NCBI GenBank assembly: GCA_002269645.1
Contig: NIVC01002473.1
Location: forward strand, 1-64,000
Source of the DNA: Macrostomum lignano
Lineage: Eukaryota
Length of the DNA: 64,000 bases
Direction: 5' to 3'
The translations under genes were made by a program, and so were the position numbers. The notes beneath the pieces are model-generated. The model had not been told where the DNA came from. It did not search any database and saw nothing but the letters and a program-made list of their open reading frames with translations. Shown one piece after another: positions 1 through 20,499 of this stretch; the first letter of the stretch is position 1, and each line of letters starts with the position of its first letter.

Positions 1-1825
1 AAGTGCTTTTCAGCAAGGGAGTTTTCCCGTATGACTATCTTAAAAATTCAGACGTGCTGAAGGATGCCGTGCTTCCCAGCCAAGAGAGCTTCTACAATGC
101 TCTGACTAAGAGCCACTGCACCAACTCTGACTATGAGCATGCTCAACGCGCCTGGCGAGAATTTCAGGTTTCAAATCTAAAAGAGTACATGCTGTGCTAC
201 CTCGAGCTCGACATCAGGCAGTTGGCTGATATTTTTGAAAATTTTCGCAAGATCAGCATGCAAGAGGATGGCCTTGATCCAGTCCATTTTATTTCGACAC
301 CAGGCTATCATTCGCTTCGGCATTGAAATCCATCAAGTCAGGGATTGAACTGCTAACAGATGCGCAGATGTATTCGCTGTTTGAGCGCGGCATTCGCGGC
401 GGCATGTCGTTTGTTAACATCCACAAAGTGCAGGCTACCTCAGCAGCGGGCGCCAGCACTGGTGTTGACAGCAATGAGGATGTTGATGGTGGCACTCCTA
501 CTATTCATGCTGGCCTCACCGAGCTTCTTGCTGTGGATGCAAACAACCTGTATGGACAGGCGCTCACTATGAACTTACCAGTCGGAGGATTCCGTTGGCT
601 GGACGATGATGAGCTGCTTTTGTGGACTGAAGATCGCATTCGAGGACTCAAGCTAACCGATCCACTCGCCTACCTCTTTGATGTTGACCTTGAGTATCCC
701 CAGAGATTCACGAAACCACCGAAGACCTACCATTTGCACCGGAAAAGGCTGCCCGAATTTCAGGGAATTTCCTGAATACATGCAGCAGCTGTGGGAAAAG
801 GTCGGTACGGAGAACTCCACCTATCATCCGACAGAGAAGCTGATGCTCACTTGTCACGATAAGCCTTCCTATGTGGTTCATTCCTCTATTTTGGCGTTCT
901 ACCTGAACCATGGAATGCGGGTTAGACGCATCAATCGCATGATTGAGTTTCACCAAGAGCCTCTCTTTGCTGCCTACGTCGAGAAAAATAGCCAGAAGCG
1001 GGCTGCAGCGAAAACCAACTTCGAAAAGGATTTCTACAAGTTAAAGAATAACGCGCTATTCGGCAAAACTATGGAGAATGTGCGAAAGCGGCGTGATATT
1101 CGAGTCTGCACCAACGTGGAAAAGGTAAAGGTACTGCTTGCCAAGCCGACAATTACCAATTTTATCATAATTACTGATTCACTAAGCGTTTTGGAACTGC
1201 AAAAGACAAAATTAAAGCTCGATCGGCCTATTTTTATCGGGCAATGCGTCCTAGACTTTTCGAAAATGATTATGTACGAGCTGTTTTACGACAAACTGAA
1301 GCCCTGGATAGAGAACGATGGAGGTGTCATCAAGCTATGCGGTGGTGATACCGATTCTTTCTTTCTCTCAATCAGCAACATGAGCGTTCAGTCTAAAGTT
1401 CTACCGCTGTTGAAGTCGAAGCAGCTGCTCGACACTTCAAACTATCCTCAAGAGCACGCGCTATTCTCGAATGATTTAAAAGCGCGACTTGGCTGCATTA
1501 AGGATGAAGCAGCCGGTGCTCGCTTTGAGGAGTGGCTGCTCCTAAGGCCGAAGCTTTACTCATTCAAGGCGAGTAGCCAAGCCGCGGAAAAGAAGAAGGC
1601 CAAAGGAGTTCAAGGATGCATTGTTAAGAAAGAGCTGGCTCACAGTGACTACCTAAGGGTGTTCAATGAGCTCTGCAGCCATTCTGTCGTTGTTCATCGT
1701 ATTGCCAGCATCCATCACCGACTGTACACTTTGCAGCAGCGGAAGTGTGCCTTAAGCATTTGGGAAGACAAGCGCGCTTGGCTGAGCCCTAACTATAGTC
1801 TCCCATTTGGTCACATTCGGCTGCT

Positions 1826-1864
<39 letters not shown>

Positions 1865-1979
1865 ACAACAACAACAACAACAACAACAACAGCAACAGCA
1901 GCAACAACAACAACAACAACAACAACAGCAGCAGCAGCAACAGCAGCAGAAATCATCAAAACGGCGCCGACTACTTTGA
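1..1979 (+). CDS. polB: Protein-primed family B DNA polymerase (5'-partial; three apparent 1-nt frameshifts at ~306, ~698-701, ~743-746)
   Basis: Motifs KGVFPYDY, LELDIRQLADIFENFR, GIRGGMS, DANNLYG, KLKNNALFGKT, DTDS, RPKLY and KAKGV are spread over ORFs 3-326, 323-775 and 678-1979. Restoring single bases gives ISTPGLSFASALKS and EYPPEIHETTEDLPFAPEK. Confidence 0.95.
1827..1949 (+). repeat. CAG/CAA microsatellite coding Q11-R-Q29 at the pPolB C-terminus
   Basis: Read directly; in frame with polB and followed by KSSKRRRLL-stop. Confidence 0.95.
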
Positions 1980-2536: not shown

Positions 2537-3103
2537 TCAGTTTGAAAGCAAGCAAGCTAATAGGGAACGGTCTGATTGTAGCATATGCTTAGACTTTGCT
2601 CCGCTGAGCACAAATGAGCCATTGTGAAAAAGCGTACACTTGCAGTATTGAAGCTGACAAACTAAAGCAGTAAAACTTTCAGGTTCATATTTCGCATTCG
2701 GTAGCACTTCACAGAGGTTTCTTAGTGATAGAGCCTTGGGCAAGTCTATTTTTCCATAAGCAGTAATAGTCTTAATTCGGACACAAACGGATTGACGAGG
2801 CAGCAGTTGAGGCGGAACTCTGCGATGCAGCATAGCCACGAAGCGACGGGCAGCCTTGACTGAGGCCGAGTAGCTCCGGGCGCCACAGATACTCAGTTGT
2901 CCAGTCGGATAGAGCAACAGAGTCACTCTGGGATTCCGCATCCTCTTGATGAGCACTCGGGGCCAGACGGGGCGATAGATGACATGAGCCATGCTGAGAG
3001 CCAGTTCCCGCAGAGGCAACTGGGCACCCCTGCCTCCAGCCAGCCTCAGATCCACGCCGCCAACCAGATTGGTCACTCGCAGGGCTGTCGCAGGTGTACT
3101 CAT
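2537..3103 (-). CDS. TATA-box-binding protein (TBP)-like protein, element-encoded, 188 aa, intronless
   Basis: Two TBP core repeats. Repeat 1, TNLVGGVDL...LIKRMRNPRVTLLLYPTGQLSICGARSYSASVKAARRF, matches TBP QNIVSTVNL...[38 protein letters not shown]. Repeat 2, YEPESFTALV...CTLFHNGSFVLSGAKS, matches YEPELFPGLI...VLLIFVSGKVVLTGAK. Confidence 0.88.
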   Translation of the reverse strand: MSTPATALRVTNLVGGVDLRLAGGRGAQLPLRELALSMAHVIYRPVWPRVLIKRMRNPRVTLLLYPTGQLSICGARSYSASVKAARRFVAMLHRRVPPQLLPRQSVCVRIKTITAYGKIDLPKALSLRNLCEVLPNAKYEPESFTALVCQLQYCKCTLFHNGSFVLSGAKSKHMLQSDRSLLACLLSN

Positions 3104-3617
3104 TTAGAGAGTCCTTTCTGTCAGTGGTGCTGTCTTTGAGAGCCTTTGAGTGGTGCGGGCACACCTCGCTTCTTAAGTTGATACAGAACTTTGGCTTCAG
3201 CCAGTTGTAGTAGAGCAATACATTTTTCACTGCACAACCAGTATCAGATGCTTGAATCAAAGGTGATCCCAGATCCTCTAGGTTGTACACCTGTCTGCCA
3301 AGCAGCTCAGTCAGAAAGATGGACTTTTTCACCCCGCTTGTCCAGGTGGGGCCGTAAGCAATGTTTAGAATGTCATTTGCCAAATGCATGTACGATCGGG
3401 ATCCATCTGTCCACTTGAAATGATGCAAATTCTTTGAGAGCTTTCTGTAATGCACCTGCATCTCAGGTGAGATTCGCTCCCATGAGAACGGAGAGGCGTA
3501 CACGTGATGAGTGATATGGTAACTGCCTGCCCGGACTTGGGCAATGGCTAGCTCCTTCACAACGAAATCTCTGCTCGATCTCTCGCGTGGGAAGCCTTGG
3601 AAGTCAATATAGTTCAT
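3104..3617 (-). CDS. Polinton accessory protein, possible DnaQ/DEDD-like nuclease fold; annotated ORF reads through to 2772 over the TBP gene
   Basis: IDFQGF...FVVKELAI...LHHFKWTDG...VYNLEDLGSP...CAVKNV is a pattern I associate with Polinton-linked proteins. The fold assignment is inference and the true stop is uncertain. Confidence 0.5.
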
Positions 3618-3657: not shown

Positions 3658-4349
3658 TCAGTTCCCCTTCTTAAATAGTTTTTTCCTGTTCAGCTGTAGC
3701 CAAGCTCTCCCACTCCCGAATCCTTTAACTGTATGATGAGCAGGGGCGGCCTCTGGAGAAACAGCAGGTTTAGAAATTAGCTGCCTAACTGACTTTCCTA
3801 TGGCCGAAGCTGGGATGTTAAGCTTTTTATCTTGGAGCAATGAGACAAACTCACTCCAGCCCACCGGCTCGCTGGCACATTTCGAATCCCTCACGGCACT
3901 GTGAAACAAATCCAGGATGTTTGAGGAGGGTATTGTCTTCCCACAAATTTGCGCCTCGCCATTTTCGGACACCCGAATCAGAGAAGGATTGCCAGATAGG
4001 ATGGCCCATAGACTGCGGGCTCTCGCTTTAAACTTCTGCGGCACGGATTGGGTGATCTTTTCCCCCAGCTGCTTGGTGCAATATCAGTTTTCAGCATCTT
4101 TGCATCACTCGCAGGTACCGCATCATCCTTTCCAGTCCGCTTGCGCTTGGCCAGCAAACTCTTCATCGCATCATGGTACATGGCAGCTTTCACATCGTCT
4201 GGGCAATCCTCGGCAAGCAAAATATCATTGCATTTCCTCTGCGCATATCTCACAGCAGTGTCGAGTTCAGACTCAACTGGCTTCAAATTCTGTGTGAGCA
4301 TGTCGTATTCTGACTTGGGGATCAGAACCATTTCTGAGAACTTATTCAT
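3658..4349 (-). CDS. Conserved Polinton protein of unknown function (one frameshift near 4080)
   Basis: N-part MVLIP...DILLAEDCPDDVKAAMYHDAM and C-part KARARSLW...GEAQICGKTIPSSNILDL...PVGWSEFVSLL...NIPASAIG resemble a recurrent Polinton gene; the halves join as KQLGEKITQSVPQKFKAR. Confidence 0.65.
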
Positions 4350-4689: not shown

Positions 4690-4706
4690 AATCTCGGCTG
4701 TTATTC

Positions 4707-5359
4707 TTAAGTGTAAACCAGGTGGGGTCGCTGATTGGGCAGGATTCGAGCCCGGACCCGCAGCTCATCAGGGGTGGAAGGGTGAAAATCCAGGAGCAGG
4801 TAGGCTCCCCTGCCGTGCGATGTCACGTGCTTGAACACTGACAGCAGAAAGCCGGGCTTCTCAGCAAAACACTGCCTGCCCAGCGCCGCAATCTGCAGCT
4901 GGTCTCTGGGTTCTTCATGATCACAAAGTACATCGCATTCAGACTCATTGTTCGCAACTCCTTCCCTTTAAAAAATACATTTTGGGTCAGCATAACCAGA
5001 AAGCAGGGCAAATGATGGGCAATTCCAGTGAAAACATTTCGCATTGCAGCAGAATTGGAAGTTTCTTCAATCAGGTCATCAAATACAACCAGGTCATTGG
5101 GTCTCAGTGCGGTCTCGATACTGCTGGGAAATCCCTGCTGCAAGTGCACGCCGAGACTGCTGAGCTCAGAGTGTGCTGCTTGTGAAATTCCGTAGTACCA
5201 CAGAACTCTCCCAGGCTTCACATCAAACATGACATCCTTGTATTGTATCAGATGTTTCACGAAGGTTGTCTTTCCTGCATTTGTAGGCCCGCTGACAATC
5301 ATGCAGCTTCCTTGTCGCAGGCGCACATCATAACAGTTTATCCGCTCACGTGTTTCCAT
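4707..5359 (-). CDS. A32/FtsK-like genome packaging ATPase (1-nt frameshift at ~4908-4910)
   Basis: Walker A SGPTNAGKT, Walker B LVVFDDL, AHH, LTQNVF and RTMSLNA. Adding one C gives KNPRDQLQIAALGRQ...AYLLLDFHP...ELRVRARILP...VYT-stop at 4707. Confidence 0.93.
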
Positions 5360-5392: not shown

Positions 5393-5911
5393 CTAATTAA
5401 ATTTATTTTTTCTTAAGCAACTCTCAAACCTTTGCAGAATTCTTTCATTCAAGTGGCTCTGCTGATTTGCATGGAGGTGCCGCAGAACCCACTCAAACGA
5501 GCGCTTGAAACGAAACTTTTGATAGGCAAACAAGAGACAGAACAAACCGCATTTAGCAGAGTTGCAGCTCTGAATTCGATTCACATTGCTACGTAAGTAG
5601 AATGGAGAATACCAAAAGGATTTCAGTGCTCTGTGAATGATCTCTAAAGTGCTTGAGTCCCAGCCCAGAGAGTTAAAGAGTTCTATGGAATTCTCCTTAT
5701 TGGCATAACAAACCACCCAGTGACCAAAGGACGAGCCGTACTGAAGCAGAAAGAAAATAAACCTACATCGAGATAAATTTCTTTTGAGAGTTGCTCGCTG
5801 AATAAAGTTTAAAGCATAAGATGTTTTATTTATTGAATTCAAGACAATAATTAAATAGTTATTTTGTGGCAAAAAGCTTTTAGCCAGTTTAAGCAGTTGA
5901 AAAGCATCCAT
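5393..5911 (-). CDS. Adenain-like cysteine maturation protease
   Basis: GHWV (His), ELFNSLG (Asn at the usual acidic position) and IQSCNSAKCGLFC (oxyanion Gln, catalytic Cys). Confidence 0.9.
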   Translation of the reverse strand: MDAFQLLKLAKSFLPQNNYLIIVLNSINKTSYALNFIQRATLKRNLSRCRFIFFLLQYGSSFGHWVVCYANKENSIELFNSLGWDSSTLEIIHRALKSFWYSPFYLRSNVNRIQSCNSAKCGLFCLLFAYQKFRFKRSFEWVLRHLHANQQSHLNERILQRFESCLRKNKFN

Positions 5912-5934: not shown

Positions 5935-7217
5935 CTAGGATGGAAAATCTAGCAGAATCTCCCTGTGCTTCGTGACCTCAATCAGTGAGTCATACAGGCA
6001 CATAACAATCAGAGATACAGGCTCCTCCAGGGCCTGTCGGAAGCGAATCTCCAGCCGCAAATTTCCCTCCTTCTGTCCGTACCACAGGGCCGCTCCCTCA
6101 GGCGTGAGATCGAATGCGAAAGCTGTGTTGCCGTTGGAGAACAACTGGTAGGGGACCCACGGAACCGAGTTGGTAGGGCTGGCAGACTGACAGCTTTTCA
6201 GGTAGTGCAAGTACTCTCTCACGAATGAATTATTCTCAGGTGCAAATGCAGCGTGGCACATGGCTTCACCACCTTTCTTTAGTGCTAGCTGGCTGAGGTT
6301 GAAGCTCTGGAACTCGAAGGGGCTGGAATGGTGATGGCCATTGAAGGCTCGGTGGTTCACGAAGACCAGCATAACGAACTTCGGCAGTTTGCCATGGGTG
6401 AATCCTTCAATGTTTTTTGACTGAATTCCCTGGGTAGAATGAAGTTTTGCATTTCGGTTCGCTCGATGGGGTAAAGTGCGTTCTGATTGGTAAGTCCCTG
6501 CTCATGCGCTAGGCTGATGTGAGGCGCCACTTTGACTCGGCGCAGGTTCAGAATACAATGGGAAATTTCAATTCGGTAGGCTGTGTTGTTCTCATCTGGG
6601 GTTCGGATGGCAAATGCAGCTTCACTGGGCATCAGCTTGATGTGCAGGTGTAAATTGTTCAGCAGCAGAACAGGACACTGGAAGATGTCGCTGAGCAGCG
6701 GTCCCGCATACTCCACCCAGCGGGACTCCCTGTGTCTCTCGGCATGCCCCTCAGCAGCAGTTTCGGGTTCCAGGAATCCGGCGGGGTAGAAATTTAACTG
6801 CTGAGCATCGGATGAGCTCATGAGAGCTTTTAGGTAGGCATGGTAGGGGTAGAGCTGGTCTCCGCCAGAGACAATGCGCTGGTTGATGCTCACGATTACA
6901 TCTGAGAATGCCGTAGATAGGACAAAGTTTTCTGGGTGCACCCCACTGTCTCTGCGCTCAGTGACAACTCCATCGGCATTCCGAACCTCCTCCCTCATCA
7001 AAGCCCCGCCAAGCCGGACTAGGCGACAGCGAATATACAGGAATGAGCTCAGCAGATCAGTGTACTCATCAGCCGATGGATGGCAGTCGAATTCAATTGG
7101 TGAGTTAGTAGAAATAGAGTTCACGGGGTGAATATCAACATACGTTGATTTTTCAATAGCAGTCTGCAGCACGGGGGACTTGAACAAATCGAGTCTCGGG
7201 TTGAATCCGTAAGCCAT
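5935..7217 (-). CDS. Double jelly-roll major capsid protein (1-nt frameshift near 6400-6434)
   Basis: N-terminal LDLFKSPVLQTAIE...SPIEF...YTDL and C-terminal FNG...SPFEF...FAFDLTP...GNLRLEIRF; the halves rejoin as IEGFTHGKLPKFVMLVF. Confidence 0.9.
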
Positions 7218-7219
7218 TG

Positions 7220-7636
7220 CTATGAGAGTGAGTCCAGAACACGCTTCACAGTTTCTTTGCCCACTTTTTGTTTTCCTTTGCCTGTTTTCTTGGTCTGTGT
7301 TTTAGTCGTTCTTTTCTTAGGTTGCTTGCTTGTTCTGACCTTGCTCGTTTTGCGTGCTTCGCCACTTTTTTCCTTCTTCTTCATGCGCACCTGCTTTTTA
7401 TTCACCTTTTTAGCCTGTCCTTGATTTCCTATGTTTCTATTACTCGTACTATTGCTTCTGCTGCTACTGCTGGTTTGTACAGGCTTTGATGCTAATGATG
7501 ATGATGATGTTATGGAAGGTGCTGGAGGAGGCTGGTAAGTCATTATTCCAGGAAAACTCCCGCAGCCATAGAGCATGGACTTTTCATTTCCCGTCCGAGT
7601 CCCTGAATACTGCCGAATCAGCTGCTGATAGTTCAT
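7220..7636 (-). CDS. Basic, K/R-rich putative core (DNA-condensing) protein
   Basis: Lies between penton and MCP; has a Gly-containing N-terminus (LYGCG) and a very lysine-rich C-terminal half. The function is inference. Confidence 0.5.
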   Translation of the reverse strand: MNYQQLIRQYSGTRTGNEKSMLYGCGSFPGIMTYQPPPAPSITSSSSLASKPVQTSSSSRSNSTSNRNIGNQGQAKKVNKKQVRMKKKEKSGEARKTSKVRTSKQPKKRTTKTQTKKTGKGKQKVGKETVKRVLDSLS

Positions 7637-8442
7637 TGCATTGGTCTCTCACGTATCAGAATTGTGAGCAGAACAGGGCTGCCGCTATGAGCAGTCAGTG
7701 AGAAGCCAAAGATGTCTCGCAGTTGAACTCGAATGCTGTGTAGAAAATTTGTTTTCTGAATGGGGAAGAAAACTGTTTTCTTAAACACTTTGCTCCAGTA
7801 GCTTCCCCATCCGGCTTCAGGATTCATGTTCACAGTTCGCAGCAGGGAATTCCAGTTGCAATTAGTTGACTCCACAATGCTACAATGCACGTTGATCAGA
7901 TTGGTGGGCGGGCAGCCAATGTGGTACATGGAAACTTGGCGCCCAGGTGGAATTTTCACGGACTGATTTCCGAATCCCAGCCACTGCAGAATTTTACTTG
8001 ATGGAAGGAATAATTCTGCTCGAGCCGTGTTGTTGAGCACTACCGTTCTCAATTCTTGGATCTCAAACTTTATGCCAATATCTCTAGCGCTGCTCCGCCC
8101 CATTAAACCAGACTCATCAGCCTCCATTTCAGACTCCCTCTCACTCATTGCATCGAAGAACAGTGACTCAGAGTTGGCCAGCAGCTCATTCATGCGCTCC
8201 ACCAACTCCTCCACTCTAGCAAAGCGTCCGGGTTGAAGAACCAAGGCCTCATGCTCTCTTCCATCTGAGACAGTGAAGCAGTAAGGCTCGTCAACATTGA
8301 ACCATGCAGCAGGCAGATGGATTTCAGCCAGACCTGCCTCATAGTCCACATTTCGATCCAAGTAAATAGGTGAAGGCAGGTGAAAATGAAAGTCAGCAGG
8401 AGTACCTTCAGCATTTTCGCTGTTAATGATGATGCTTCTCAT
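7633..8442 (-). CDS. Minor capsid protein (penton, single jelly-roll); likely ATG at 8442
   Basis: DFHFHLPSPIYL...YEAGLAEIHLPAAWFNV at the N-terminus; INVHCSIV...LLRTV...SIRVQLRDIFG at the C-terminus. Confidence 0.8.
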   Translation of the reverse strand: MRSIIINSENAEGTPADFHFHLPSPIYLDRNVDYEAGLAEIHLPAAWFNVDEPYCFTVSDGREHEALVLQPGRFARVEELVERMNELLANSESLFFDAMSERESEMEADESGLMGRSSARDIGIKFEIQELRTVVLNNTARAELFLPSSKILQWLGFGNQSVKIPPGRQVSMYHIGCPPTNLINVHCSIVESTNCNWNSLLRTVNMNPEAGWGSYWSKVFKKTVFFPIQKTNFLHSIRVQLRDIFGFSLTAHSGSPVLLTILIRERPMQ

Positions 8443-8472: not shown

Positions 8473-9540
8473 TTACACTTTTCTTAAGTCCTTCTCATCC
8501 ACCCAGTCAGTGGAGTCGTAGCCGGCCCACTTGACCAGATATCGGATCTTTCCCTGCCGCTTCTCAGTCTTCAAAATCTTTTCAATCACATACAGCCGCT
8601 GCGACTCCGGAACGGCCTGCAGTTCATGCTCGTGAAAAAGCCCACGAATCTCTTCTCCTTTCATGTCTTTTATCTTGTACATGTAGGGATAATGCTTTGG
8701 AGCTCTGGACACCACCGTGTACACTTCTTCGCTCCAGTTGGCCTTGTACCCTTTTCTAAAAAGCCTGGGTGCATTGGAAATCCGCACAGACTGGTTTTCG
8801 CTGAACTTTGGCTTTCCCAGCTTTTCCACAGTTTCAATCGCTTTCCCGTCATATAGGCTCATCCAGACCTCGGACTCGTTCTCCTGGCTGACATTCGTTG
8901 GGGCCATTCGTATGCTTCTGTGGTATGTTTTGTTGTAGGACTTCACTAGCTTAGGCAACACATCAAGCCAATGCAGAGTGCTGTTGTGAGTGAAGTAGCG
9001 CCACATTTTGCTCTTTAAAGTTCGGTTCCATCGTTCAATGACAGCCGCCTTCTGCTCACTGTTGGTTGGGAATGCCAGGATTCCCCTTTCCATACAGCAT
9101 TGGCGAAAAGTAGAGTTGATAAACTCTTTCCCCTGATCAGTGCGAACAGTGCGCGGTTGCCGCTTTGAACTTCTTAATATGCTCTCGAATGCCGACTTCA
9201 CTTCAATAGAAGACTTGTTCTTTAATGCCCTCGCCCATCCGTACTTGGACAGCACATCAATGCATGTTAGAATATACCTGTAGCCGTTATTATACTTGGA
9301 AAAAGGAATCATCTCCACCAGATCCAACTCCCATTGGTCATCAATACTTCGAACTATGATTGGGGCCCTCGGATAATTCCTCCTTGCTGGCTTATGTAAT
9401 GTGTAGACTGTCTGATCGTTAAGCCAGTTTTTCGCAGCTTTTTCACTCACTCGGATACCCTGCGTGCGAACTTCATTAATAAATTTATTGCAGCCAGAAA
9501 AGCTTGCTGGCTGCTCAGGGTTAAAGTAAATCTTTTCCAT
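8473..9540 (-). CDS. Retroviral-like (rve) DDE integrase with C-terminal chromodomain
   Basis: WELDL, IDVLSKY, TDQGKEF and IERWNRTLK; C-terminal YVIEKIL...YLVKWAGYD..DWVDEKDL is a chromodomain. ORF is uninterrupted. Confidence 0.95.
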   Translation of the reverse strand: MEKIYFNPEQPASFSGCNKFINEVRTQGIRVSEKAAKNWLNDQTVYTLHKPARRNYPRAPIIVRSIDDQWELDLVEMIPFSKYNNGYRYILTCIDVLSKYGWARALKNKSSIEVKSAFESILRSSKRQPRTVRTDQGKEFINSTFRQCCMERGILAFPTNSEQKAAVIERWNRTLKSKMWRYFTHNSTLHWLDVLPKLVKSYNKTYHRSIRMAPTNVSQENESEVWMSLYDGKAIETVEKLGKPKFSENQSVRISNAPRLFRKGYKANWSEEVYTVVSRAPKHYPYMYKIKDMKGEEIRGLFHEHELQAVPESQRLYVIEKILKTEKRQGKIRYLVKWAGYDSTDWVDEKDLRKV

Positions 9541-9760
9541 TTTTAATTAGAGAAAAAATTAAACTCATTTCGCATTCTTAAGTTCACCAGTAAACTAGCA
9601 TAACTATAGAGAGAGATGCTTATTTTATTTTATTTTTAATTTTAAACGAGCTCATTTAATAGGACATTAATGAATAAGCTGAAAAAGCTGGATAAATAGA
9701 ACTGTTAGACATCAATACAGATGGCATAGCAATGTCCACGCATAGTCACTTAAAAAGTTA

Positions 9761-10489
9761 TCAAGCACTTTTGTCTGCGTCACCATCCTCTCCACCATTG
9801 ATCACTTTGGGCAACTTGATTGCATTTTGCCTGCGCAGGGGCCACGGAAGCTTTCGTTTGTGACAGCCGCTGTTGCCGAGCCCTGAAGCAGCACGGAACC
9901 GGTACCACAGTGGGTCGTGCGACAGGTCGCTGTCTTGCTGGGGTATGCGCCCGACTGAAGTCTCTGGCAGAACAGGCGAGCTGGTTGCATTGTCCGACTC
10001 GACGATGCGCAGCCTCTTCTCTTCTTCTTCTTCTTCTTCGCTGACCGGCAGAGTTTCTTGGCCCTCATGCTTGATGTCCTCGGCCTCCAGCTGATACTCA
10101 CTCTCCGCCGACTTCTCTCGCAGCTCGTTGTCGATCCACTCGGCCTTCTTCCAGAGTTCTCCCCATAGACGGGGAGTCAGCGCCACTGAGTTCCGCCGCA
10201 GATAATCCTCTGTACAGTCTTCCGGCAGGCGCTTCAGCCAGATGATACCCCTGCTGACCACAACGAGTTTATCAAAGCCAAGCTTGACTGTGACGCTGTG
10301 CCGATTGACTGCCGAGTGCACAAGCTGGCGTTTCAGCTGCTTCAACTTCTCCCATTGGTATGCATTGAGGTTAAAGCCAGGGATGCCCGCTCTGAGCCCG
10401 CTTTCAGAGGAGAAGAAACGTCGGATTGCAATAAAGCGATGACCTTCGTACTCTTGCACTTGAACTTTGAAGCCGTCACAGAGATCCAT
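9761..10489 (-). CDS. PC4/Sub1-like ssDNA-binding/coactivator protein with probable tandem PC4 domains and an acidic tail
   Basis: KVQVQEYEGHRFIAIRRFF...GIPGFNLNAYQWEKLK matches PC4 YVSVRDFKGKVLIDIREYW...GRKGISLNPEQWSQLK; a second degenerate copy ends SVALTPRLWGEL. Confidence 0.75.
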   Translation of the reverse strand: MDLCDGFKVQVQEYEGHRFIAIRRFFSSESGLRAGIPGFNLNAYQWEKLKQLKRQLVHSAVNRHSVTVKLGFDKLVVVSRGIIWLKRLPEDCTEDYLRRNSVALTPRLWGELWKKAEWIDNELREKSAESEYQLEAEDIKHEGQETLPVSEEEEEEEKRLRIVESDNATSSPVLPETSVGRIPQQDSDLSHDPLWYRFRAASGLGNSGCHKRKLPWPLRRQNAIKLPKVINGGEDGDADKSA

Positions 10490-10499
10490 TAATGATATG

Positions 10500-10812
10500 T
10501 TTCTTTAAGAAGGATGCACAAAAATTCCTTTCGTCATGAAGCCAACCTCAAAAAATCGCCCATCTTATATATACTTTCTAGGCGGAGTGGGGTGGGTGCA
10601 ATAATGAGTTTCCTTCAGTACATATACCAGCATGCGCTTTGTTATCTCACCGGGCCCCCATGCCCACCCGATGTGCCCCCCATGGAATTTCCATGGCTCT
10701 CCCCGCGGCAGAGTCGCTCAATGGATTCACACGGGCCCGCATGTCCACTCACCAGGGCCCATGGCTTTTCCACGGAAATTCCTGCGGCAGAGTTCTGTTA
10801 TCCCATACTACT
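10500..10812. repeat. Putative right terminal inverted repeat region of the Polinton
   Basis: Non-coding GC-rich stretch with short palindromes (CCATGG, GGGCCC) ending in CATACTACT; the partner TIR is not in the window. Confidence 0.6.
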
Positions 10813-11024
10813 GACAGTGGTGCATGGGTTAAATATAACAAACAGTTACTAAGTCCGAAACCTCTACTGATAATTGTAATAAATATCAGCACTGAGATTC
10901 GAGAAAAATACACATCAACTTAATAAATTATAAATAAAATTCTAATTAACAAGATGTCAATGAATTTAAACTATTATTGACAAAAATCAGTGGCAAAGAA
11001 GCTTAAAAAGAAGGGCATAGGGTT

Positions 11025-11694: not shown

Positions 11695-14600
11695 CTCGCC
11701 TAGCAACGGCCTGGTGGTAGGGCGGCGGCGCCAACGGGCGGCCAACGGTGGCCACGGTGGTCTCGCTTCGGGGTGGCGGCGGCGGCGGAGGCGTAGGCGA
11801 AGCCACCGATGATGAGGATGAGGAAGGCGATGGGGAGGCTGGGAGCTGCTGGACGCCGCTGAGATGCTGCCGTTGCTGCATCACCTGTGGAAAGTGAAAT
11901 AAGCTTGCCATGGGTCAGGATTGAGAATCTGGGAGGCTGGTCCAGCAACTGAGGATCTGAGAGGCTGGCCCAGCAACTGAGGATCTGAGAGGCTGGCCCA
12001 GCAACTGAGGATCCGGGAGGCTGGCCTAGCAACTGAGGATCTGGGCGGCTGTCCAAGCAACTGAGGATTTGGGAGGCTGGCCCAGCAACTGGGGATCTGG
12101 GAGGCTGGCCCAGCAACTGGGGACTGAGGATCTGGGAGGCTGGCCCAGCAACTGAGGATCTGGGCGGCTGTCCAAGCAACTGGGAATGTGGGAGGCTGGC
12201 CCAGCAACTGGGGATCTGGGAGGCTGGCCCAGCAACTGGGGACTGAGGATCTGGGAGGCTGGCCCAGCAACTGAGGATCCGGGAGGCTGGCCTAGCAACT
12301 GAGGATCTGGGAGGCTGGCCCAACAACTGGGAATGTGGGAGGCTGGCCCAGCAACTGAGGATCTGGGAGGCTGGCCCAGCAACTGAGGATCTGGGAGGCT
12401 GGCCCAGCAACTGAGGATCTGGGAGGCTGGCCCAGCAACTGGGGATCTGGGAGGCTGGCCCAGCAACTGGGGATCTGGGTGGGCGACAGAGATAGATATG
12501 ATATAAACTGACCTGTTGATAGGGCGGCGGCAGAGGCGGTCTGGCCGCAGGCGCGGCGGCGCCGGCCACGACAGCGGCGGGCACAGCAGCAGGAATGTGC
12601 TGATGCTTGGCCGGCTTGCGGCCCTCGCTAAGCGACATGAGCTTGTTAAACTGGGCATCGTTAGTAGTGTTAAACTTAGTCCCAGCAGTGGAGGCCACAT
12701 CGGGACACTGGGAGATCGGGCCTCCGTCTGATTCAGCCGATGTCAGCCGGAGCCGGGACACGTACTCGGCCAGCTTCTTCTCGGCGATGGTCTCGTCGTG
12801 AAGCTTCTTGGTCAGAGCGGCCACCGCGGCGGAGCGGCGCTTTCCTGAGCCGGAGCCGACGGTCAGGGCGGAGCTGCTGCCGGCCCGTCGAAGCGGTGGC
12901 GGCACGGAGGCATTTGGGGCGCCAGCAAGATGCAGAGTGGCCGCCGTGGAAGCTGAGGCGGAGCCCTGATGATGCCTACCTTGCCGCCAGGTGTGACCTT
13001 CGTAGCTGGCCTGCGCATAGTGGCAGAAGCCGCGCACCTAAGTGCAAAAATATGGTTTCAAATGGTTGTAGAGGGTACAGCAACCTCCTGAAGATTCAGA
13101 GAGGGTACAGCAACCAACTTAAGATTTAGAGAGGGTACAGCAAACCCATGAAGTCTCAGAGGGAGTATACGAGCTAGCAACCTCTTGAAGTTTCAGAGAG
13201 GGTATAGCAACCTCTTGAAGTTTCAGAGAGGGTATAGCAACCTCTTGAAGTTTCAGAGAGGGTATAGCAACCTCTTGAAGTTTCAGAGAGGGTATAGCAA
13301 CCTCTTGAAGTTTCAGCGAGGGTATAGCAACCTCTTGAAGTTTCAGAGAGGGTATAGCAACCTCTTGAAGTTTCAGTGAAGGTATAGCAACCTCTTGAAG
13401 TTTCAGTGAGGTATAGCAACCTCTTGAAGCTTCAGAGAGGGTATAGCAATCCCCTAAATTGTCAGAGTGTACAGCAACCCCCTGAAGTTTCAGAGAGGGT
13501 ACAGCAACCCCCTGAAGTTTCAGAGATGGTACAGCAACCCCCTGAAGTTTCAGAGGGAGTATAGCAACCCCCTGAAGTTTCAGAGAGGGTATGGCAACCT
13601 CCGCAGTTTCAGAGAGGGTACAGCAATCCCCTGAAGTTTCAGAGAGGGTATAGCAACTCCCTGAAGTTTTAGAGAGGGTATAGCAACCTCTTGAAGTTTC
13701 AGAGAGGGTATAGCAACTCCCTGAAGTTTCAGAGAGGGTATGGCAATCCCCTGAAGTTTCAGAGAGGGTACAGCAATCCCCTGAAGTTTCACATAGAAGT
13801 CACTGAAAGACAAAAGATCACAAACTTACCTCTCTAGCCAGCAGTCGCAGCTTCTCAAAGTTAACTAGACCATCCTTCATCTGTTCATTGCACTCGCGAA
13901 TAGCAGTTAAATCTTTGCACAATATAGGCAGGTAAGGTATGGCTGGAGCTTGGAATTTATCGGATTTAAAAAGCTGCCGGTAGCTAGAGTGATTCATCCG
14001 GATATCAGTTAGTTTTTCTAAAGACTTCCAAATGTCTCGATATTTCTTAGGCAATTTCTCCCACGCAGGATTGAGCTGAGAGTTCTGACTCTTTGCTAGG
14101 CCAAGAGTCAGGCTCATCAAGGTATTGAGATTGTTCAATTGACGACAGTACTGTGCCACTTTGAGAAAGTGCTTCAATAAACGGACTCGACGGTTGGTGT
14201 TCTGCTCGGCCGTGAGCTCACTAACTGGCCAATTGGATTCTTTTTCAGTGACCGCCGAAAGCTCATTGATCTCTTTAGAGGCTTTCTCTTTCCGGTGCCA
14301 CCAGTCCACCAGGTGGGTAGGCAGGATTCGTTGGAACACGTTGAAGTCTTCTTTAGTGATGCGCATAGCCACTTCTTGCGGATCCAGCTGGGATTAATTG
14401 TTAGGTGTATAAGGTTTGTTAGGCGTTTCGATACATATCGGTATAGAGCCGATTTTGTCGCAACCTATAGCATGTAAATTAATTGGGAAACTGGAACAGA
14501 CTGCTCAAAGTTTTGAAATCGACTCGTTTTTTGCCTTTAAACTAATCACTTCTATTTTATTCTCTCTCCCTCTCTCTTATCCCCTTCTCTCCTATCTCAC

Positions 14601-17600
14601 TCTATCCCATCTCTCCTCTCTTCTACCCCCCCTCTCTCCTATCTCTCCAATCTCCTATCTCTCCTATCTCCCTCTCTCCTAACTCTCCTATCTCCCCTCT
14701 CTCCTAACTCTCCTATCTCCCCTCTCCCCTAACTCTCCTATCTCCCTCTCCCCTAACTCTCCTATCTCCCCTCTCCCCTAACTCTCCTATCTCCCTCTCC
14801 CCTAACTCTCCTATCTCCCCTCTCCCCTAACTCTCCTATCTCCCTCTCCCCTAACTCTCCTATCTCCCCTCTCCCCTAACTCTCCTATCTCCCTCTCTCC
14901 TAACTCTCCTATCTCCCTCTCCCCTAACTCTCCTATCTCCCCTCTCCCCTAACTCTCCTATCTCCCTCTCCCCTAACTCTCCTATCTCCCCTCTCCCCTA
15001 ACTCTCCTATCTCCCTCTCTCCTAACTCTCCTATCTCCCTCTCCCCTAAATCTCCTATCTTCCTCTCTCCTAACTCTCCTATCTCCCTCTCTCCTAACTC
15101 TCCTATCTCCCTCTCTCCTAACTCTCCTAACTCTCCTATCTCCCCTCTCTCCTAACTCTCCTATCTCCCCTCTCTCCTAACTCTCCTATCTCCCCTCTCT
15201 CCTAACTCTCCTATCTCCCCTCTCTCCTAACTCTCCTATCTCCCCTCTCTCCTAACTCTCCTATCTCCCTCTCTCCTAACTCTCCTATCTCCCCTCTCCC
15301 CTAACTCTCCTATCTCCCCTCTCTCCTAACTCTCCTATCTCCCCTCTCTCCTAACTCTCCTATCTCCCCTCTCTCCTAACTCTCCTATCTCCCCTCTCTC
15401 CTAACTCTCCTATCTCCCTCTCTCCTAACTCTCTTATCTCCCTCTCTCCTAACTCTCCTATCTCCCTCTCTCCTAACTCTCCTATCTCTCCTATCTCCTA
15501 ACTCTCCTATCTCCCCTTTCCCCTAAATCTCCTATCTTCCTCTCTCCTATCTTCCTCTCTCCTATCTCCCCTCTACCCTAAATCTTCTATCTTCCTCTCT
15601 CCTATCTTCCTCTCTCCTATCTCCCCTCTACCCTAAATCTTCTATCTTTCTCTCTCCTAACTACCTCTCTCCCCCTCTCTCTTATTCATACGAGTCGACT
15701 TTTGATAATGAATTCGTTGGTATTAAAAATTTCTAAAAAATAATAAGTTTTATCAGTCATTACTGCTTATTAAACATAAATAATATGTGTAGAAGTAGCC
15801 TACTCTACATCACTATTCAAGCAGACCTATAATAGTGCCAGGTACAAAACGAAAAAATATGTCAGTCTTTCGCATTTCTCTCTCTCACTTTTCACCCCAA
15901 AAAACAGGTAGATAAAAACATTTTTTCCTTACACAACTACAGTCATAGGTAGAAGTCCCATCCCGAGTTGAACTAGAGGGGGGGGGGCTAGGATCAGAAA
16001 TGGGCGGAGTGGACCTCCGGCACCTGGCACTGATGTATAGCAAGATGAGTCATCAATAGAAAAAGAGGGAGTGGAAAAGACTTGATAGAGGAGGGGTTTA
16101 AGTCGTGGGATTAGTTCTAGAACCCAGTTAGTGCGAGGCGCGTGTGTGTGTGCGTGATATACAGCTGCATGCACTATAACAGTGGCAAGTCAGGACACCA
16201 AGGGCAGAAGTTACAAGTATCTGAGGGTTTAGCAGGGATTCTGTGCAATAATTATACATCTTATATAATCTTTTACGCGCTATGATTCCAGAGGAAAAAG
16301 TCTGGGAAACGGGTATTAACCTCAAATACATATATAAAAGGCTTTATTATTATTCTGAATAAATAAAAAGTTAACCATGATTATTGATGAGTCATTCATT
16401 TGATTAATACTATTTTTGTAAACTGCCTGATTTTCTCGTTAATTATCTATGCAAATTGGCCAAAATTAATGCAAACTGGCCAATATGCTTGTAAATTGGT
16501 CACTATTAATGTAAATTGGCTAATATCCATGTAAATTATCAGTCATGATTATGTAGCTAAATTATGATTAGCTAATATTCATGTAAATTGGCTAATATTC
16601 ATGTAGATTGGCCAATATTCATGTAAATTGGCTAATATTCATGAAAATGGGCCAATATTCATGTAAACTGACCGATATTCATGTAAATTGGCAAATATTG
16701 ATGTAAATTAGCTAATATTCATGTAAATTGGCTAATATTAATGTAAATTGGCTAATATCCATGTAAATTATCAGTCATGATTATGTAGCTAAATTATGAT
16801 TAGCTAATATTCATGTAAATTGGCTAATATTCATGTAGATTGGCCAATATTCATGTAAATTGGCTAATATTCATGAAAATGGGCCAATATTCATGTAAAC
16901 TGACCGATATTCATGTAAATTGGCAAATATTGATGTAAATTAGCTAATATTCATGTAAATTGGCTAATATTCATGTAAATTGGCTAATATTCATGTAAAT
17001 TGGCCAATTATGTACATTGGCTATTAAGCATGTAAATTGGCCAATATTCATGTAAACTGGCCACTATCTATGTAAATTAGCTATTTTTTAGCAAAATTAT
17101 TTAACCAAGCAAAATGTTCAAGTGGGTATCAGCTAAGCAATAAGCAGAGCTCACCTGCAAAAAGTCCACAGCAGCCTCCCTGAGCACATCCTGAGCATCC
17201 GCATCTGACAGGAACTGGTGCGCCAGCTCATTCTGCTGTTTAACATAGTAGCGAGCGTTCAACGCTAGCCGGTTGCCAAGGTCTTGCAGATTATCCGACA
17301 GGGTCTTCCGCCGGATCAGCGGCCCAGCATTGACGCTAATCTCCATGAGTTTATACTCATTGCTTGAGCCGTGCAATCCGAACTCTTGCATAGACAGCAT
17401 CACAACTTCTCTAGCCGTAGTCTCCTGGTTGATGCACAACAGTTTAAACGCACCGTCGGGTCTGAAGACACGGATCACGTGATCCGGCTGATCGGCTACG
17501 CCACTGACACTGCCAATACCGGCGCTTAAATCTGGATTGGAGGTCGATCCCTTCAGAGCGTGACCTCCAGATGTACCTGCAGCAGAGGCGGCAACCTTCT

Positions 17601-20499
17601 CCGCTGCTCCGGTGTCGCTACCAGCTTTGCCAGGAACCAGCTGACGGCCTGTGGCTCTGCCGAGTGAGCCGCCGCCGCTGCTGCTGCTGCCGCCATTCCC
17701 CGAGTCCTGATGGCCTCCACCAGCTGCTGTGGCCGATGCATTGGAGGCCAGCAACAGTTTATAAAAATTTAGCGGATCCCAACGAACTGTCAAGTCGAGT
17801 TTAGCGTCAGACTGTTGCTGATGCGACGGCTGGTGGTGGGAGGGATGATAATGATTATCAATTTGAAACTTATTATCAATTGTTATTGATAATAACAATT
17901 GATTATTATCAATAATGATTACCAAATGATAGGTTTGGTAAAATCAAAACAAAAAAATGGCACCCATAGTCTGGAAATGGCACCCATAGTCTGGAAATGG
18001 CACCCATAGTCTGGAAATGGCACCTATAGTTTACAAATGGCACCCCTAGTCTAAAAATGGCACCCACCCATAATTTAAAAATGGCTACCATAGTAAAAAA
18101 TGGCACCCATAGTTTCAAAAATGACACCCATAGTTGAGAAAATGACACCCATAGTTTAGAAAATGGCACCCATAGTTTCAAAAATGGCACCCTTAGTTTA
18201 AAATGGCGCCCATAGTTTTGAAAATGGCACCCATAGTTTAAAAAATGGCACCTACAGTTTTAAAAATAGCACCCATAGTTTCAAAAATGGCACCCTTAGT
18301 TTAGAAAATGGCACCCATAGTTTCAAAAATACCACCAATAGTTTGGCACCTATAGTTTTTAAAATGGCACCCATAGTTTTAAAAATGGCACTTATAGTTT
18401 AAAAACGGCACCCATAGTTTAAAATGGCACTTATAGTTTAAAAACGGCACTTTTAGTTTAAAAATGACAACCATAGTTTAAAAATGACACCCTTAGTTTA
18501 AAAATGGCACCTTTAATTAAAAATGGCACTATTAGGTTTACAAAATGGCACTAAGTGCACAAATATTTGCCCCCCTCCTCCCATATCAAGCACAGCGTAC
18601 CTGCAGCAGGCTCTTCAGTCGCACCAGCGGCATCTGCTCCACAGGCTGACCACCAATGGACACGACTCGATCGCCGGCCCGTAGACCGCACAGAGCAGCC
18701 GGACTGCTGTCAATCACGTCTCGAACGTAACACAGCCGTTCGCCCAGATGAAACCTGGCCCCATTGTTAACCACAGGGCACGCCGCTTTTCTCAATCGCG
18801 ACTTTGTCGAGCAGGCAATTCTGAGCAGATTCTGCGGTCCTCGAGTCTCCTCCCGGCGTTCCAACTGCCTGTCGAAGTGTTGCAATATTCGAAACAATTC
18901 GCTGGAATCGTCGAAGTCGTTGAAATGATTGTTGGTCCACAGCAGGAACACTCGGACAGCACGGCTGGCCTGTTCGCCACCGCAGCCAAGGCCTTCAAGG
19001 AGCCGCTGGGCCACCGGCAGGCCGCTGTCCAAGAAGGTGCGATAAGTCAACAGGAAGTCGTCGGCATAGTTCGGGTCGGCGGAGGAACCACCGCGGCACT
19101 CCAGCAGCTGATCGATGAGCGCCTGCGGCGTGCCTCGAATTATCGTCTGCTGCTTTTTAAGCGTACCCGACTCCAGCGTGCGGATCTCCTTCACCAGCTG
19201 CAGACTGCCGTCCGAAGCTCGAATCTCTATGGTGTTCTCCGCTTCGGCTGAGAGCACCTTGCAGTACTGCTCCTGAGTACGGTGGATGAGGGGGTCATTA
19301 ACTCGTGAACTGCGAGGCTGTCCCAGCAACTGAGGATTTGGGAGGCTGGCCTAGCAACTGAGGATCTGGGAGGCTGTCCCAGCAACTGAGGATTTGGGAG
19401 GCTGGCCCAGCAACTGAGGATCTGAGAGGCTGGCCCAGCAACTGATGAGGATCGGGGAGGCTGGTCCAGCAACTGAGGATCTGAGAGGCTGGCCCAGCAA
19501 CTGGGGACTGAGGATCTGGGAGGCTGGCCCAGCAACTGAGGATTTGGGAGGCTGGCTAGGAAATCCCTCTCAGGGTGAGACACTTAGAAATCTCAAGGTG
19601 AGACACTTAGAAATCTCAAGGTGAGACACTTAGAAATCTCAAGGTGAGACACTTAGAAATCTCAGGATGAGACACTTAGAAATCTCAAGCTGAGACGCGT
19701 TAAAAACAACCAGCTGCAGTCCCAGCAGCAACCAACCTGAGTGATGAAGGCGAACCGACAGTTGGGCACCAGAGACCGCATGACCCCCACGTGGTGCTGC
19801 CGCTCAGTAGTCGGCTTCACTCCGAAGGCATCGCCGCAGTGCAGCTGCACGGGCGCGTTGCCAGGCCGTTGAATCTCCACTTCGCCATCAACAATAACGG
19901 ACCAAGAGTCCAGCTTCTCTCCGTCATCCAGTACAACCTTTCCAGGTTTCTCAACCACCGCGTACAGCATGCAGCCGGCGAATTGCCTCTGAGTAGCTCT
20001 AGTGAAATTTGAGAACGCGTGCAAACGTTGAAAGGAGTCTAGCAATAATTCGATGTCCTCATTTGACCTTTCAGTTGGGTCCTTTTCTAGGGCAATTAGT
20101 AGGGGACTCCGCCTAGGCAGGTCCGGTGTCACTTGAACCCCGTGAGCCGAATCAGCGTCCAGCATCCGCATCTGCTGATGAAGCTCTTCATCACTGTCAT
20201 AATTCTGCACGGAGCTGTCCAATTCCCCGCTGCCAGAGTAGGCTGACGATGTGTCTGAGCTGTGCGACATCCGCTTGGCAACTGAGGAATCGCTTAGGCG
20301 GGCTAGCAGAGTCTCCTGATGGTTCAGCAGCTGCGGGAGAGATGAAGGAGGATGGAATTAGCATGCCTGATGACACAGCATACGCCAGCACAGACCTGGC
20401 AGACTCTATAGACAGCTAGATGGACCTGACGGACTTGAGAATGTGTATTCAAAATATGGTCACGCAGCACAGCCTTTACAGACTTCAGCGTTGAACTGC

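Follow-up and report, generated by a model that had tools for sequence, protein, structure and literature searches.

A Polinton that fills the first 10.8 kb of the window (the whole 64,000-nucleotide stretch analysed, from Macrostomum lignano contig NIVC01002473.1) encodes its own TATA-binding protein (TBP), and an altered TATA-like box precedes its capsid and packaging genes, an arrangement suggestive of a simple late-gene switch built into the element. Judging from sequence and structure modelling, the element TBP probably drives late genes by recruiting host TFIIB and Pol II to that box. The finding bears on how Polintons control their capsid genes and on whether they need a helper virus. 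If the element supplies both the TBP and the box that it reads, early-to-late expression should be possible without a helper.

The TBP gene, its element and its copies

An intact, intronless ORF of 188 aa at 2537-3103 is the TBP gene. It has the same orientation as the capsid block, as the sequence-only reading had described, and lies on the minus strand; the plus strand there is stop-rich. PF00352 matched two stretches of the ORF (E 1.3e-22; 79.8 bits, cut-off 22.9), which places it in the TBP family and agrees with the alignment to both TBP core repeats noticed earlier. All 35 solved-structure sequences with E < 1e-8 were TBPs or TBP fusions, and the closest solved relatives by sequence were archaeal and eukaryotic TBPs. 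A structure model from a 130-row alignment reached a pLDDT of 96 and a pTM of 0.86, although the rows are mostly TBPs and the model is thus biased toward the TBP fold; folding from the single sequence gave a pLDDT of 37, too low for use. The saddle fold, whose absence had been named as grounds for abandoning the assignment, was found in the model, from which Foldseek led to TBPs (E 5e-14 to 1.5e-9, TM ~0.8). One earlier claim fell away. The ORF was said to start at a TAAATG junction, but the TAA lies in the TBP frame and ends no gene. It is no stop-start junction because the upstream ORF overlaps the TBP gene by 110 codons, and TAAATG was found in only 4 of 14 representative copies; a reading as a poxvirus-like initiator was rejected as well.

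The polymerase B gene lies on the plus strand and the remaining genes on the minus strand, in the order PC4-like, integrase, putative minor capsid, basic ORF, putative major capsid, C5 protease, ATPase, two small ORFs, upstream ORF and TBP. The 3' part of the family B DNA polymerase (368-1979, plus strand, in two frames in the assembly; a weak PHROG match, E 5e-4) is tail to tail with the TBP gene, and its frame ends in a long CAG/CAA repeat (1808-1960) giving a polyglutamine tail. Together with an rve integrase carrying a chromodomain (8473-9540, minus strand, Pfam), this weakly matched polymerase places the element among Polintons/adintoviruses. The other minus-strand genes are an adenovirus-type cysteine protease (5393-5911; Peptidase_C5, E 4e-5, above the cut-off), a PC4-like gene for an ssDNA-binding protein or coactivator (9761-10489; PF02229, E 8e-5, below the cut-off), and an ORF with a Walker A motif and weak P-loop matches that we take, from gene context, to be the packaging ATPase (4823-5359, frameshifted in the assembly); a search of the genome with PF04665, for an A32-like ATPase, found nothing. 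The ORFs at 5935-7217 (two frames in the assembly) and 7633-8442, both on the minus strand, are presumably the major capsid and minor capsid (penton) proteins; neither had a Pfam or PHROG match. Several genes between 368 and 7217 are frameshifted in the assembly, and some of these frameshifts may be assembly errors, since independent runs differ from the assembly at such places. The right terminus, AGTAGT (10807-10812, minus strand), which we assume to be the Polinton-typical motif, lies where similarity to five other copies stops (10812-10816), and the left end is beyond the contig start. Host RasGEF exons with a cyclic-nucleotide-binding domain lie beside the element at 13818-20270 on the minus strand.

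The upstream ORF (2772-3617, minus strand, 281 aa) is conserved over its first 165 aa, which we take to be DEDD-exonuclease-like; searches of Pfam, PHROGs, PDB and the protein collection returned nothing for the ORF. Towards its 3' end it shares the sequence of TBP codons 1-110 but is read in another frame. All 12 of 12 family-1 representatives keep this second frame open across 108-112 codons of the TBP gene; in family 2 the open overlap is 130 codons long, or 91 in one copy. Synonymous reshuffling leaves the frame open in only 0.1-2.3% of runs.

A genome search with the TBP ORF gave 151 matches. Among the 150 listed, 94 are near full-length open copies of the window's own family (family 1), 69-100% identical; seven copies are identical to the window ORF, and many are diverged. 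In 18 stretches picked across the subfamilies of these open copies, the upstream ORF precedes TBP in all 18, the ATPase is found in 17 and the capsid gene in 16, with the polymerase tail to tail with TBP in 16; the upstream ORF is also present in all 30 + 12 short loci. TBP thus stands at the same place in other copies, whose lack of it had been proposed as a test. dN/dS was 0.07-0.27 in the first half of TBP (9 representatives, 36 pairs) and 0.05-0.30 in the second half (23 pairs, with 13 others saturated). TBP is a stable element gene, held open under purifying selection. Four sequencing runs guessed to be RNA covered 29-30 of 30 bins, non-coding parts included, so these runs could be DNA.

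TBP is found in all three Polinton lineages detected in the genome. Family 2, 35% identical to family 1, has 20 near full-length open TBP copies and the same gene order. A third lineage was revealed by a capsid search and taken as a TBP-free control, yet it carries a TBP. For annotation purposes, the genome's roughly 150 open frames of the 'TATA-binding protein' type belong to elements, whereas host TBP and TRF2 occupy three loci each.

Several minor features accompany these copies. In a family-2 stretch (L049) the PC4-like gene is tail to tail with TBP and polymerase-like sequence lies at the opposite end, the reverse of family 1. The family-3 TBP (L127, L131, L135, L141-L150) is very divergent, with 83 matches of which 41 are near full-length and open; it has no in-frame ATG, lies behind a splice-acceptor-like site in two of three cases, and has a deoxynucleoside kinase and a dUTPase among its neighbours. 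At three matching loci (L053, L054; C860, C1655, C2018) a broken TBP stands with a mere scrap of the upstream ORF, in a pattern like that of host genes, and is probably an old remnant. The polymerase arm starts with variable Cys-rich ORFs, most of them behind TATA-like boxes (L109, L112-L114, L068). Seven close pairs (among L031-L048) are 91-100% identical in DNA until the repeat junction (TBP codons 105-112), where identity drops to 62-85%; beyond it the figure is ~45%, and the polymerases of these pairs are strongly different. Repeat 2 thus seems to move with the polymerase arm, making many TBPs natural chimeras.

Residue changes on the DNA face and relationship to host TBP

Residues were compared with those of host TBP from the same genome, and yeast residue numbers (e.g., Pro191, Val122) denote the element TBP positions that we take to be equivalent. 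The element TBP is a bare core, almost without an N-terminal extension. As the sequence-only reading had seen, the YEPE stirrup (139-142) and both Phe of repeat 2 (F144, F159) are retained and the second dyad Asn is replaced by Thr (T112); the first dyad Asn is kept in repeat 1 (N12). Canonical TBP has four intercalating Phe, two per repeat (passages of PMC3142196), and the element TBP departs from this in repeat 1. Replacement of both these Phe had been proposed, and it stands in full for the first, where Pro occurs (P48, with W47 adjacent and Trp or His there across the proteins); the second is a conservative change to Tyr (Y65). Pro191 is also absent, its place being taken by T145, and the canonical combination of an Asn pair with Pro191 is thus not found.

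Families 1 and 2 have these DNA-face changes in common despite being only 35% identical. Across them N12, V14, T61, L63, Y65, K111, T112, F144 and F159 are invariant, as are E140, P141 and E142 of the predicted acidic stirrup in 10 of 10 rows. Because the changes are invariant or nearly so over these 10 proteins, the DNA face looks remodelled rather than decayed. The family-3 TBP lacks the first Asn in the portion seen. The acidic C-terminal stirrup of TBP has a role in TFIIB contact. Its invariance next to an altered DNA face could also suit a decoy that binds TFIIB, NC2, Mot1 or TAF1 without productive DNA binding and so damps host transcription or defence. We regard such a decoy as quite improbable: the altered DNA face is itself invariant in distant relatives, which suits a new ligand better than decay, and the family-specific boxes described below would be left unexplained. 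The TFIIB-decoy role raised by the sequence-only reading gained no specific support.

A recently captured processed copy of host TBP or TRF2, carried as a functionless passenger, is refuted by the results and has next to no likelihood left. The TBP gene is intronless in families 1 and 2, as such a copy would be, and the core of host TBP is likewise intronless. The element TBP is ~25% identical to host TBP and to TRF2. An AU test rejects the families-1/2 clade as sister of host TBP (p 0.008) or of TRF2 (p 0.027), so that a TRF2/TBPL1 grouping was not recovered either; the dN/dS values lie far below 1, and the 94 open copies among the 150 listed matches do not suit a passenger. By these sequence comparisons the element TBP is not a recent host copy, which disposes of an origin that had been named as fatal to the proposal.

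In trees of 56 and 30 of the 160 alignment rows, selected by us, plus family 3, families 1 and 2 form one clade with the outside relatives P0009, P0023 and P0159 (SH-aLRT 96 and 99). A single origin for all three TBP families is not rejected by the AU test (p 0.46), nor do the trees, whose branches are long, establish it.

A TATA-like box before the central-block genes

Eight of ten central-block genes are preceded by the box YWTAAGAA or a one-base variant of it. All the boxes given here lie on the minus strand. The TBP gene itself has CTTAAGAA at 3170-3177, within the upstream ORF (13 of 13 family-1 copies), and the upstream ORF has TTTAAGAA at 3668-3675 (box in 12 of 12 copies), the form there being TATATAAGAA, which overlaps a canonical TATA, in 8 of 12 copies. 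Further boxes precede a 105-aa ORF (4704-4711; 10 of 11 copies), the packaging ATPase (5410-5417; 12 of 12), the putative minor capsid gene (8481-8488; 12 of 12) and the integrase (9575-9582; 8 of 10). The major capsid gene has here the variant CCTAAGAA, one base off, at 7314-7321; a box stands before this gene in 11 of 11 copies, and in 7 of the 11 it is CTTAAGAA. The box at 7778-7785 lies ~150 nt before the basic 138-aa ORF, with a box at a like place in family 2. Within 130 nt before the protease (0 of 14), the 123-aa ORF (0 of 13) and the basic ORF (0 of 12), no box was found in family 1; the protease and the 123-aa ORF abut the preceding gene and may share its transcript.

YWTAAGAA occurs exactly seven times in the 7.2-kb block against a shuffle mean of 0.67 (0 of 1000 shuffles reach seven) and five times in 6.6 kb of family 2 against 0.48 expected, counts to be read with the motif having been chosen by eye from both families together, so that neither is a blind test. 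The best hexamer has a p of 2.7e-5, which fails correction for 2966 hexamers alone, and the site counts are non-independent, amounting to ~8, 6 and 6 distinct sites in the three lineages. TAAGAA occurs 10 times on the sense strand and never on the antisense strand, with 7 of the 10 lying 30-115 nt from a start. The box persists over differing codons and frames in families 1 and 2; several boxes fall in Leu-Arg codons (TTA AGA in 4 of 19, ~0.4 expected from codon use) or on stop codons. Most boxes lie at least 34 nt before the ATG, many at 40-60 nt, and three family-2 boxes are very near the first ATG (11, 18 and 11-13 nt). Family 3 has another form, TATAAGYA, with two to three per stretch in 8 of 8 stretches and none in 12 of 12 family-1/-2 stretches, mostly 43-60 nt and in some cases 95-240 nt before starts. 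There were no matches to a TATAAAC box here.

The terminal genes differ, with a canonical TATA in place of the variant box of the virion-type genes, these classes being drawn by gene type and not by expression timing. The PC4-like gene has the canonical TATA TATATATAAG at 10564-10573 (minus strand), and of the copies compared, 4 of 5 and 8 of 11 have a canonical TATA before this gene. The TBP gene has the YWTAAGAA box in family 1 and a canonical TATAAA in family 2 (8 of 8), so the start-up of the two families differs.

A role outside Pol II initiation, such as bending the termini for replication or packaging, or Pol III service, fits these data poorly and is very improbable. TBP does adjoin the polymerase in families 1 and 3, and in apparent recombinants repeat 2 goes with the polymerase arm; against this, the neighbour of TBP in family 2 is the PC4-like gene, and the box sits before genes on the sense strand.

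A stronger competitor, though still unlikely, is that the box is read by host TBP, as a weak TATA, or by a baculovirus/nudivirus-type helper RNA polymerase, which starts at TAAG, with the element TBP having another task. All three boxes contain [AT]TAAG, and TAAG is the late motif needed by the baculovirus polymerase (passages of PMC9786725). A few boxes are also too near the ATG for a TATA position, and host TBP tolerates G at position 6 (passages of PMC1636458). However, plain [AGT]TAAG sites show no enrichment and are in fact depleted (7 against 16), TAAG being enriched only with a following AA (families 1 and 2) or YA (family 3). The flanks of the box vary with the TBP lineage, and the distance of most boxes from the ATG also speaks against this competitor.

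The fit between box and protein bears on the same question. In passages of PMC1636458, which relays the rules of Patikoglou 1999, the C-terminal repeat of TBP reads the 5' half of the box, and Pro191 permits only T at position 1. The Pro191 position holds Thr, Ser or Asn in families 1 and 2, and Pro is kept in family 3 (clear FPQ in two of three, FPM in one). Correspondingly, C opens the box at 40 of 63 family-1 sites and 7 of 22 family-2 sites and at 0 of 31 in family 3, although these counts repeat few sites over related copies of three lineages and are thus a lead, not proof. The 3' half, read by the N-terminal repeat, is AGAA in families 1 and 2 and AGYA in family 3. An idea that Ser at the Val122 position makes room for G6 was discarded, because G at position 6 already fits wild-type TBP (PMC1636458). 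Given this, and given solved structures that by their titles show wild-type TBP on T(-30), G(-26) and C(-25) variants, host TBP may read TATAAG boxes and could read the T-initial boxes.

From the fold, conservation, selection, gene order and family-specific form of the box, all directly observed, we infer the binding of the element TBP, its contact with TFIIB, the timing and the polymerase in the following scheme. The end genes (the PC4-like gene and the first gene of the polymerase arm), with their canonical TATA, would be read by host TFIID. The element TBP would be made at a low level first, aided by nearby host-readable boxes, and would then bind the variant box YWTAAGAA. Its acidic stirrup would have been retained for host TFIIB, and host Pol II would be recruited to the genes for integrase, capsid and packaging proteins and, within family 1, to the TBP gene as well. 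Several observations count against this scheme besides the possible reading of the box by host TBP: the boxes in Leu-Arg or stop codons, the three family-2 boxes very near an ATG, the protease and 123-aa ORF without a box, the differing start-up of families 1 and 2, Pro at an intercalating position, and the missing first Asn in family 3. The sequence-only reading had proposed altered promoter specificity directed at late promoters; a conserved TATA-like box before the virion genes now speaks for this part. More tentatively, the arrangement could be the smallest known viral late switch, a single TBP co-evolved with its own TATA variant in each lineage and transcriptionally insulating the lineages from the host and from each other. 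Three natural TBP/box pairs in one genome offer an altered-specificity TBP set for studies of TATA recognition.

Relation to known systems and relatives

The closest parallel in design is the TATT-binding proteins of beta- and gammaherpesviruses (EBV BcRF1, KSHV ORF24, CMV UL87), in which a viral TBP-like protein acts with a variant TATA before late genes, a canonical TATA stands at early genes and host Pol II is used (passages of PMC4893493 and PMC12529657). These proteins are ~10% identical to TBP and part of a six-protein viral complex, and KSHV ORF24 has been modelled as incompatible with TFIIB (PMC12529657). The element TBP, by contrast, consists of little more than its 188-aa core, shares 25% identity with TBP and keeps the stirrup. 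Among the element ORFs, Pfam and PHROGs revealed neither partners of a six-protein initiation complex nor ORF24-like extra domains. The element TBP is not a member of the herpesvirus system and is much closer to cellular TBP.

With cellular TBP, TRF2 and archaeal TBP it shares the saddle fold, the two repeats, N12, V14, YEPE, F144 and F159. Unlike cellular TBP, it has Pro and Tyr at intercalating positions and Thr for the second Asn, and it lacks Pro191. TRF2 of the same genome shows another pattern of residue losses. Giant-virus TBP-like proteins and ASFV pB263R serve a viral RNA polymerase. These proteins and poxvirus VITF-3 resemble the element TBP in being virus-encoded TBP folds (PMC5825884, PMC12917281), with VITF-3 serving the viral RNA polymerase (PMC12917281). 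However, their structural identity to the element TBP is at most 20%, and these elements showed no gene for an RNA polymerase.

In gene content the element is like Polintons, Mavericks and adintoviruses, with polymerase B, rve integrase, C5 protease, a putative ATPase, putative capsids and the AGTAGT terminus. The sequence-only reading knew of no description of a TBP in Polintons. The searched literature does link TBP to this group in one place, as a label in the legend to Figure 5 of Starrett et al. 2021, on MELD (PMC8502044 and preprint), and the passages found discuss neither a promoter box nor a TBP function; what holds of the earlier statement is that the article text searched gave no description of a Polinton TBP together with a box of its own. 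Word look-ups gave neither TATA nor TBP in PMC10748475, PMC8097293, PMC11071308, PMC11131425 and 10.64898/2026.06.19.733378, or in one supplement file of PMC8502044.

No relative turned up in IMG/VR scans that used the TBP alignment, the upstream ORF or P0097 as query, and an Atlas search returned generic TBP clusters only. A metagenome scan gave 12 loci, none of which had another Polinton gene by tblastn; five of the 12 were examined and are archaeal-type or cellular TBPs. The element TBP may be an old, widespread and overlooked Polinton module; in that case these elements would carry out a timed viral programme in the nucleus unaided by a helper. P0087, P0091, P0097 and P0029 are bare TBPs of 170-173 aa with Thr at the second Asn, some on contigs of 9-19 kb, and from these features may be element TBPs of other hosts.
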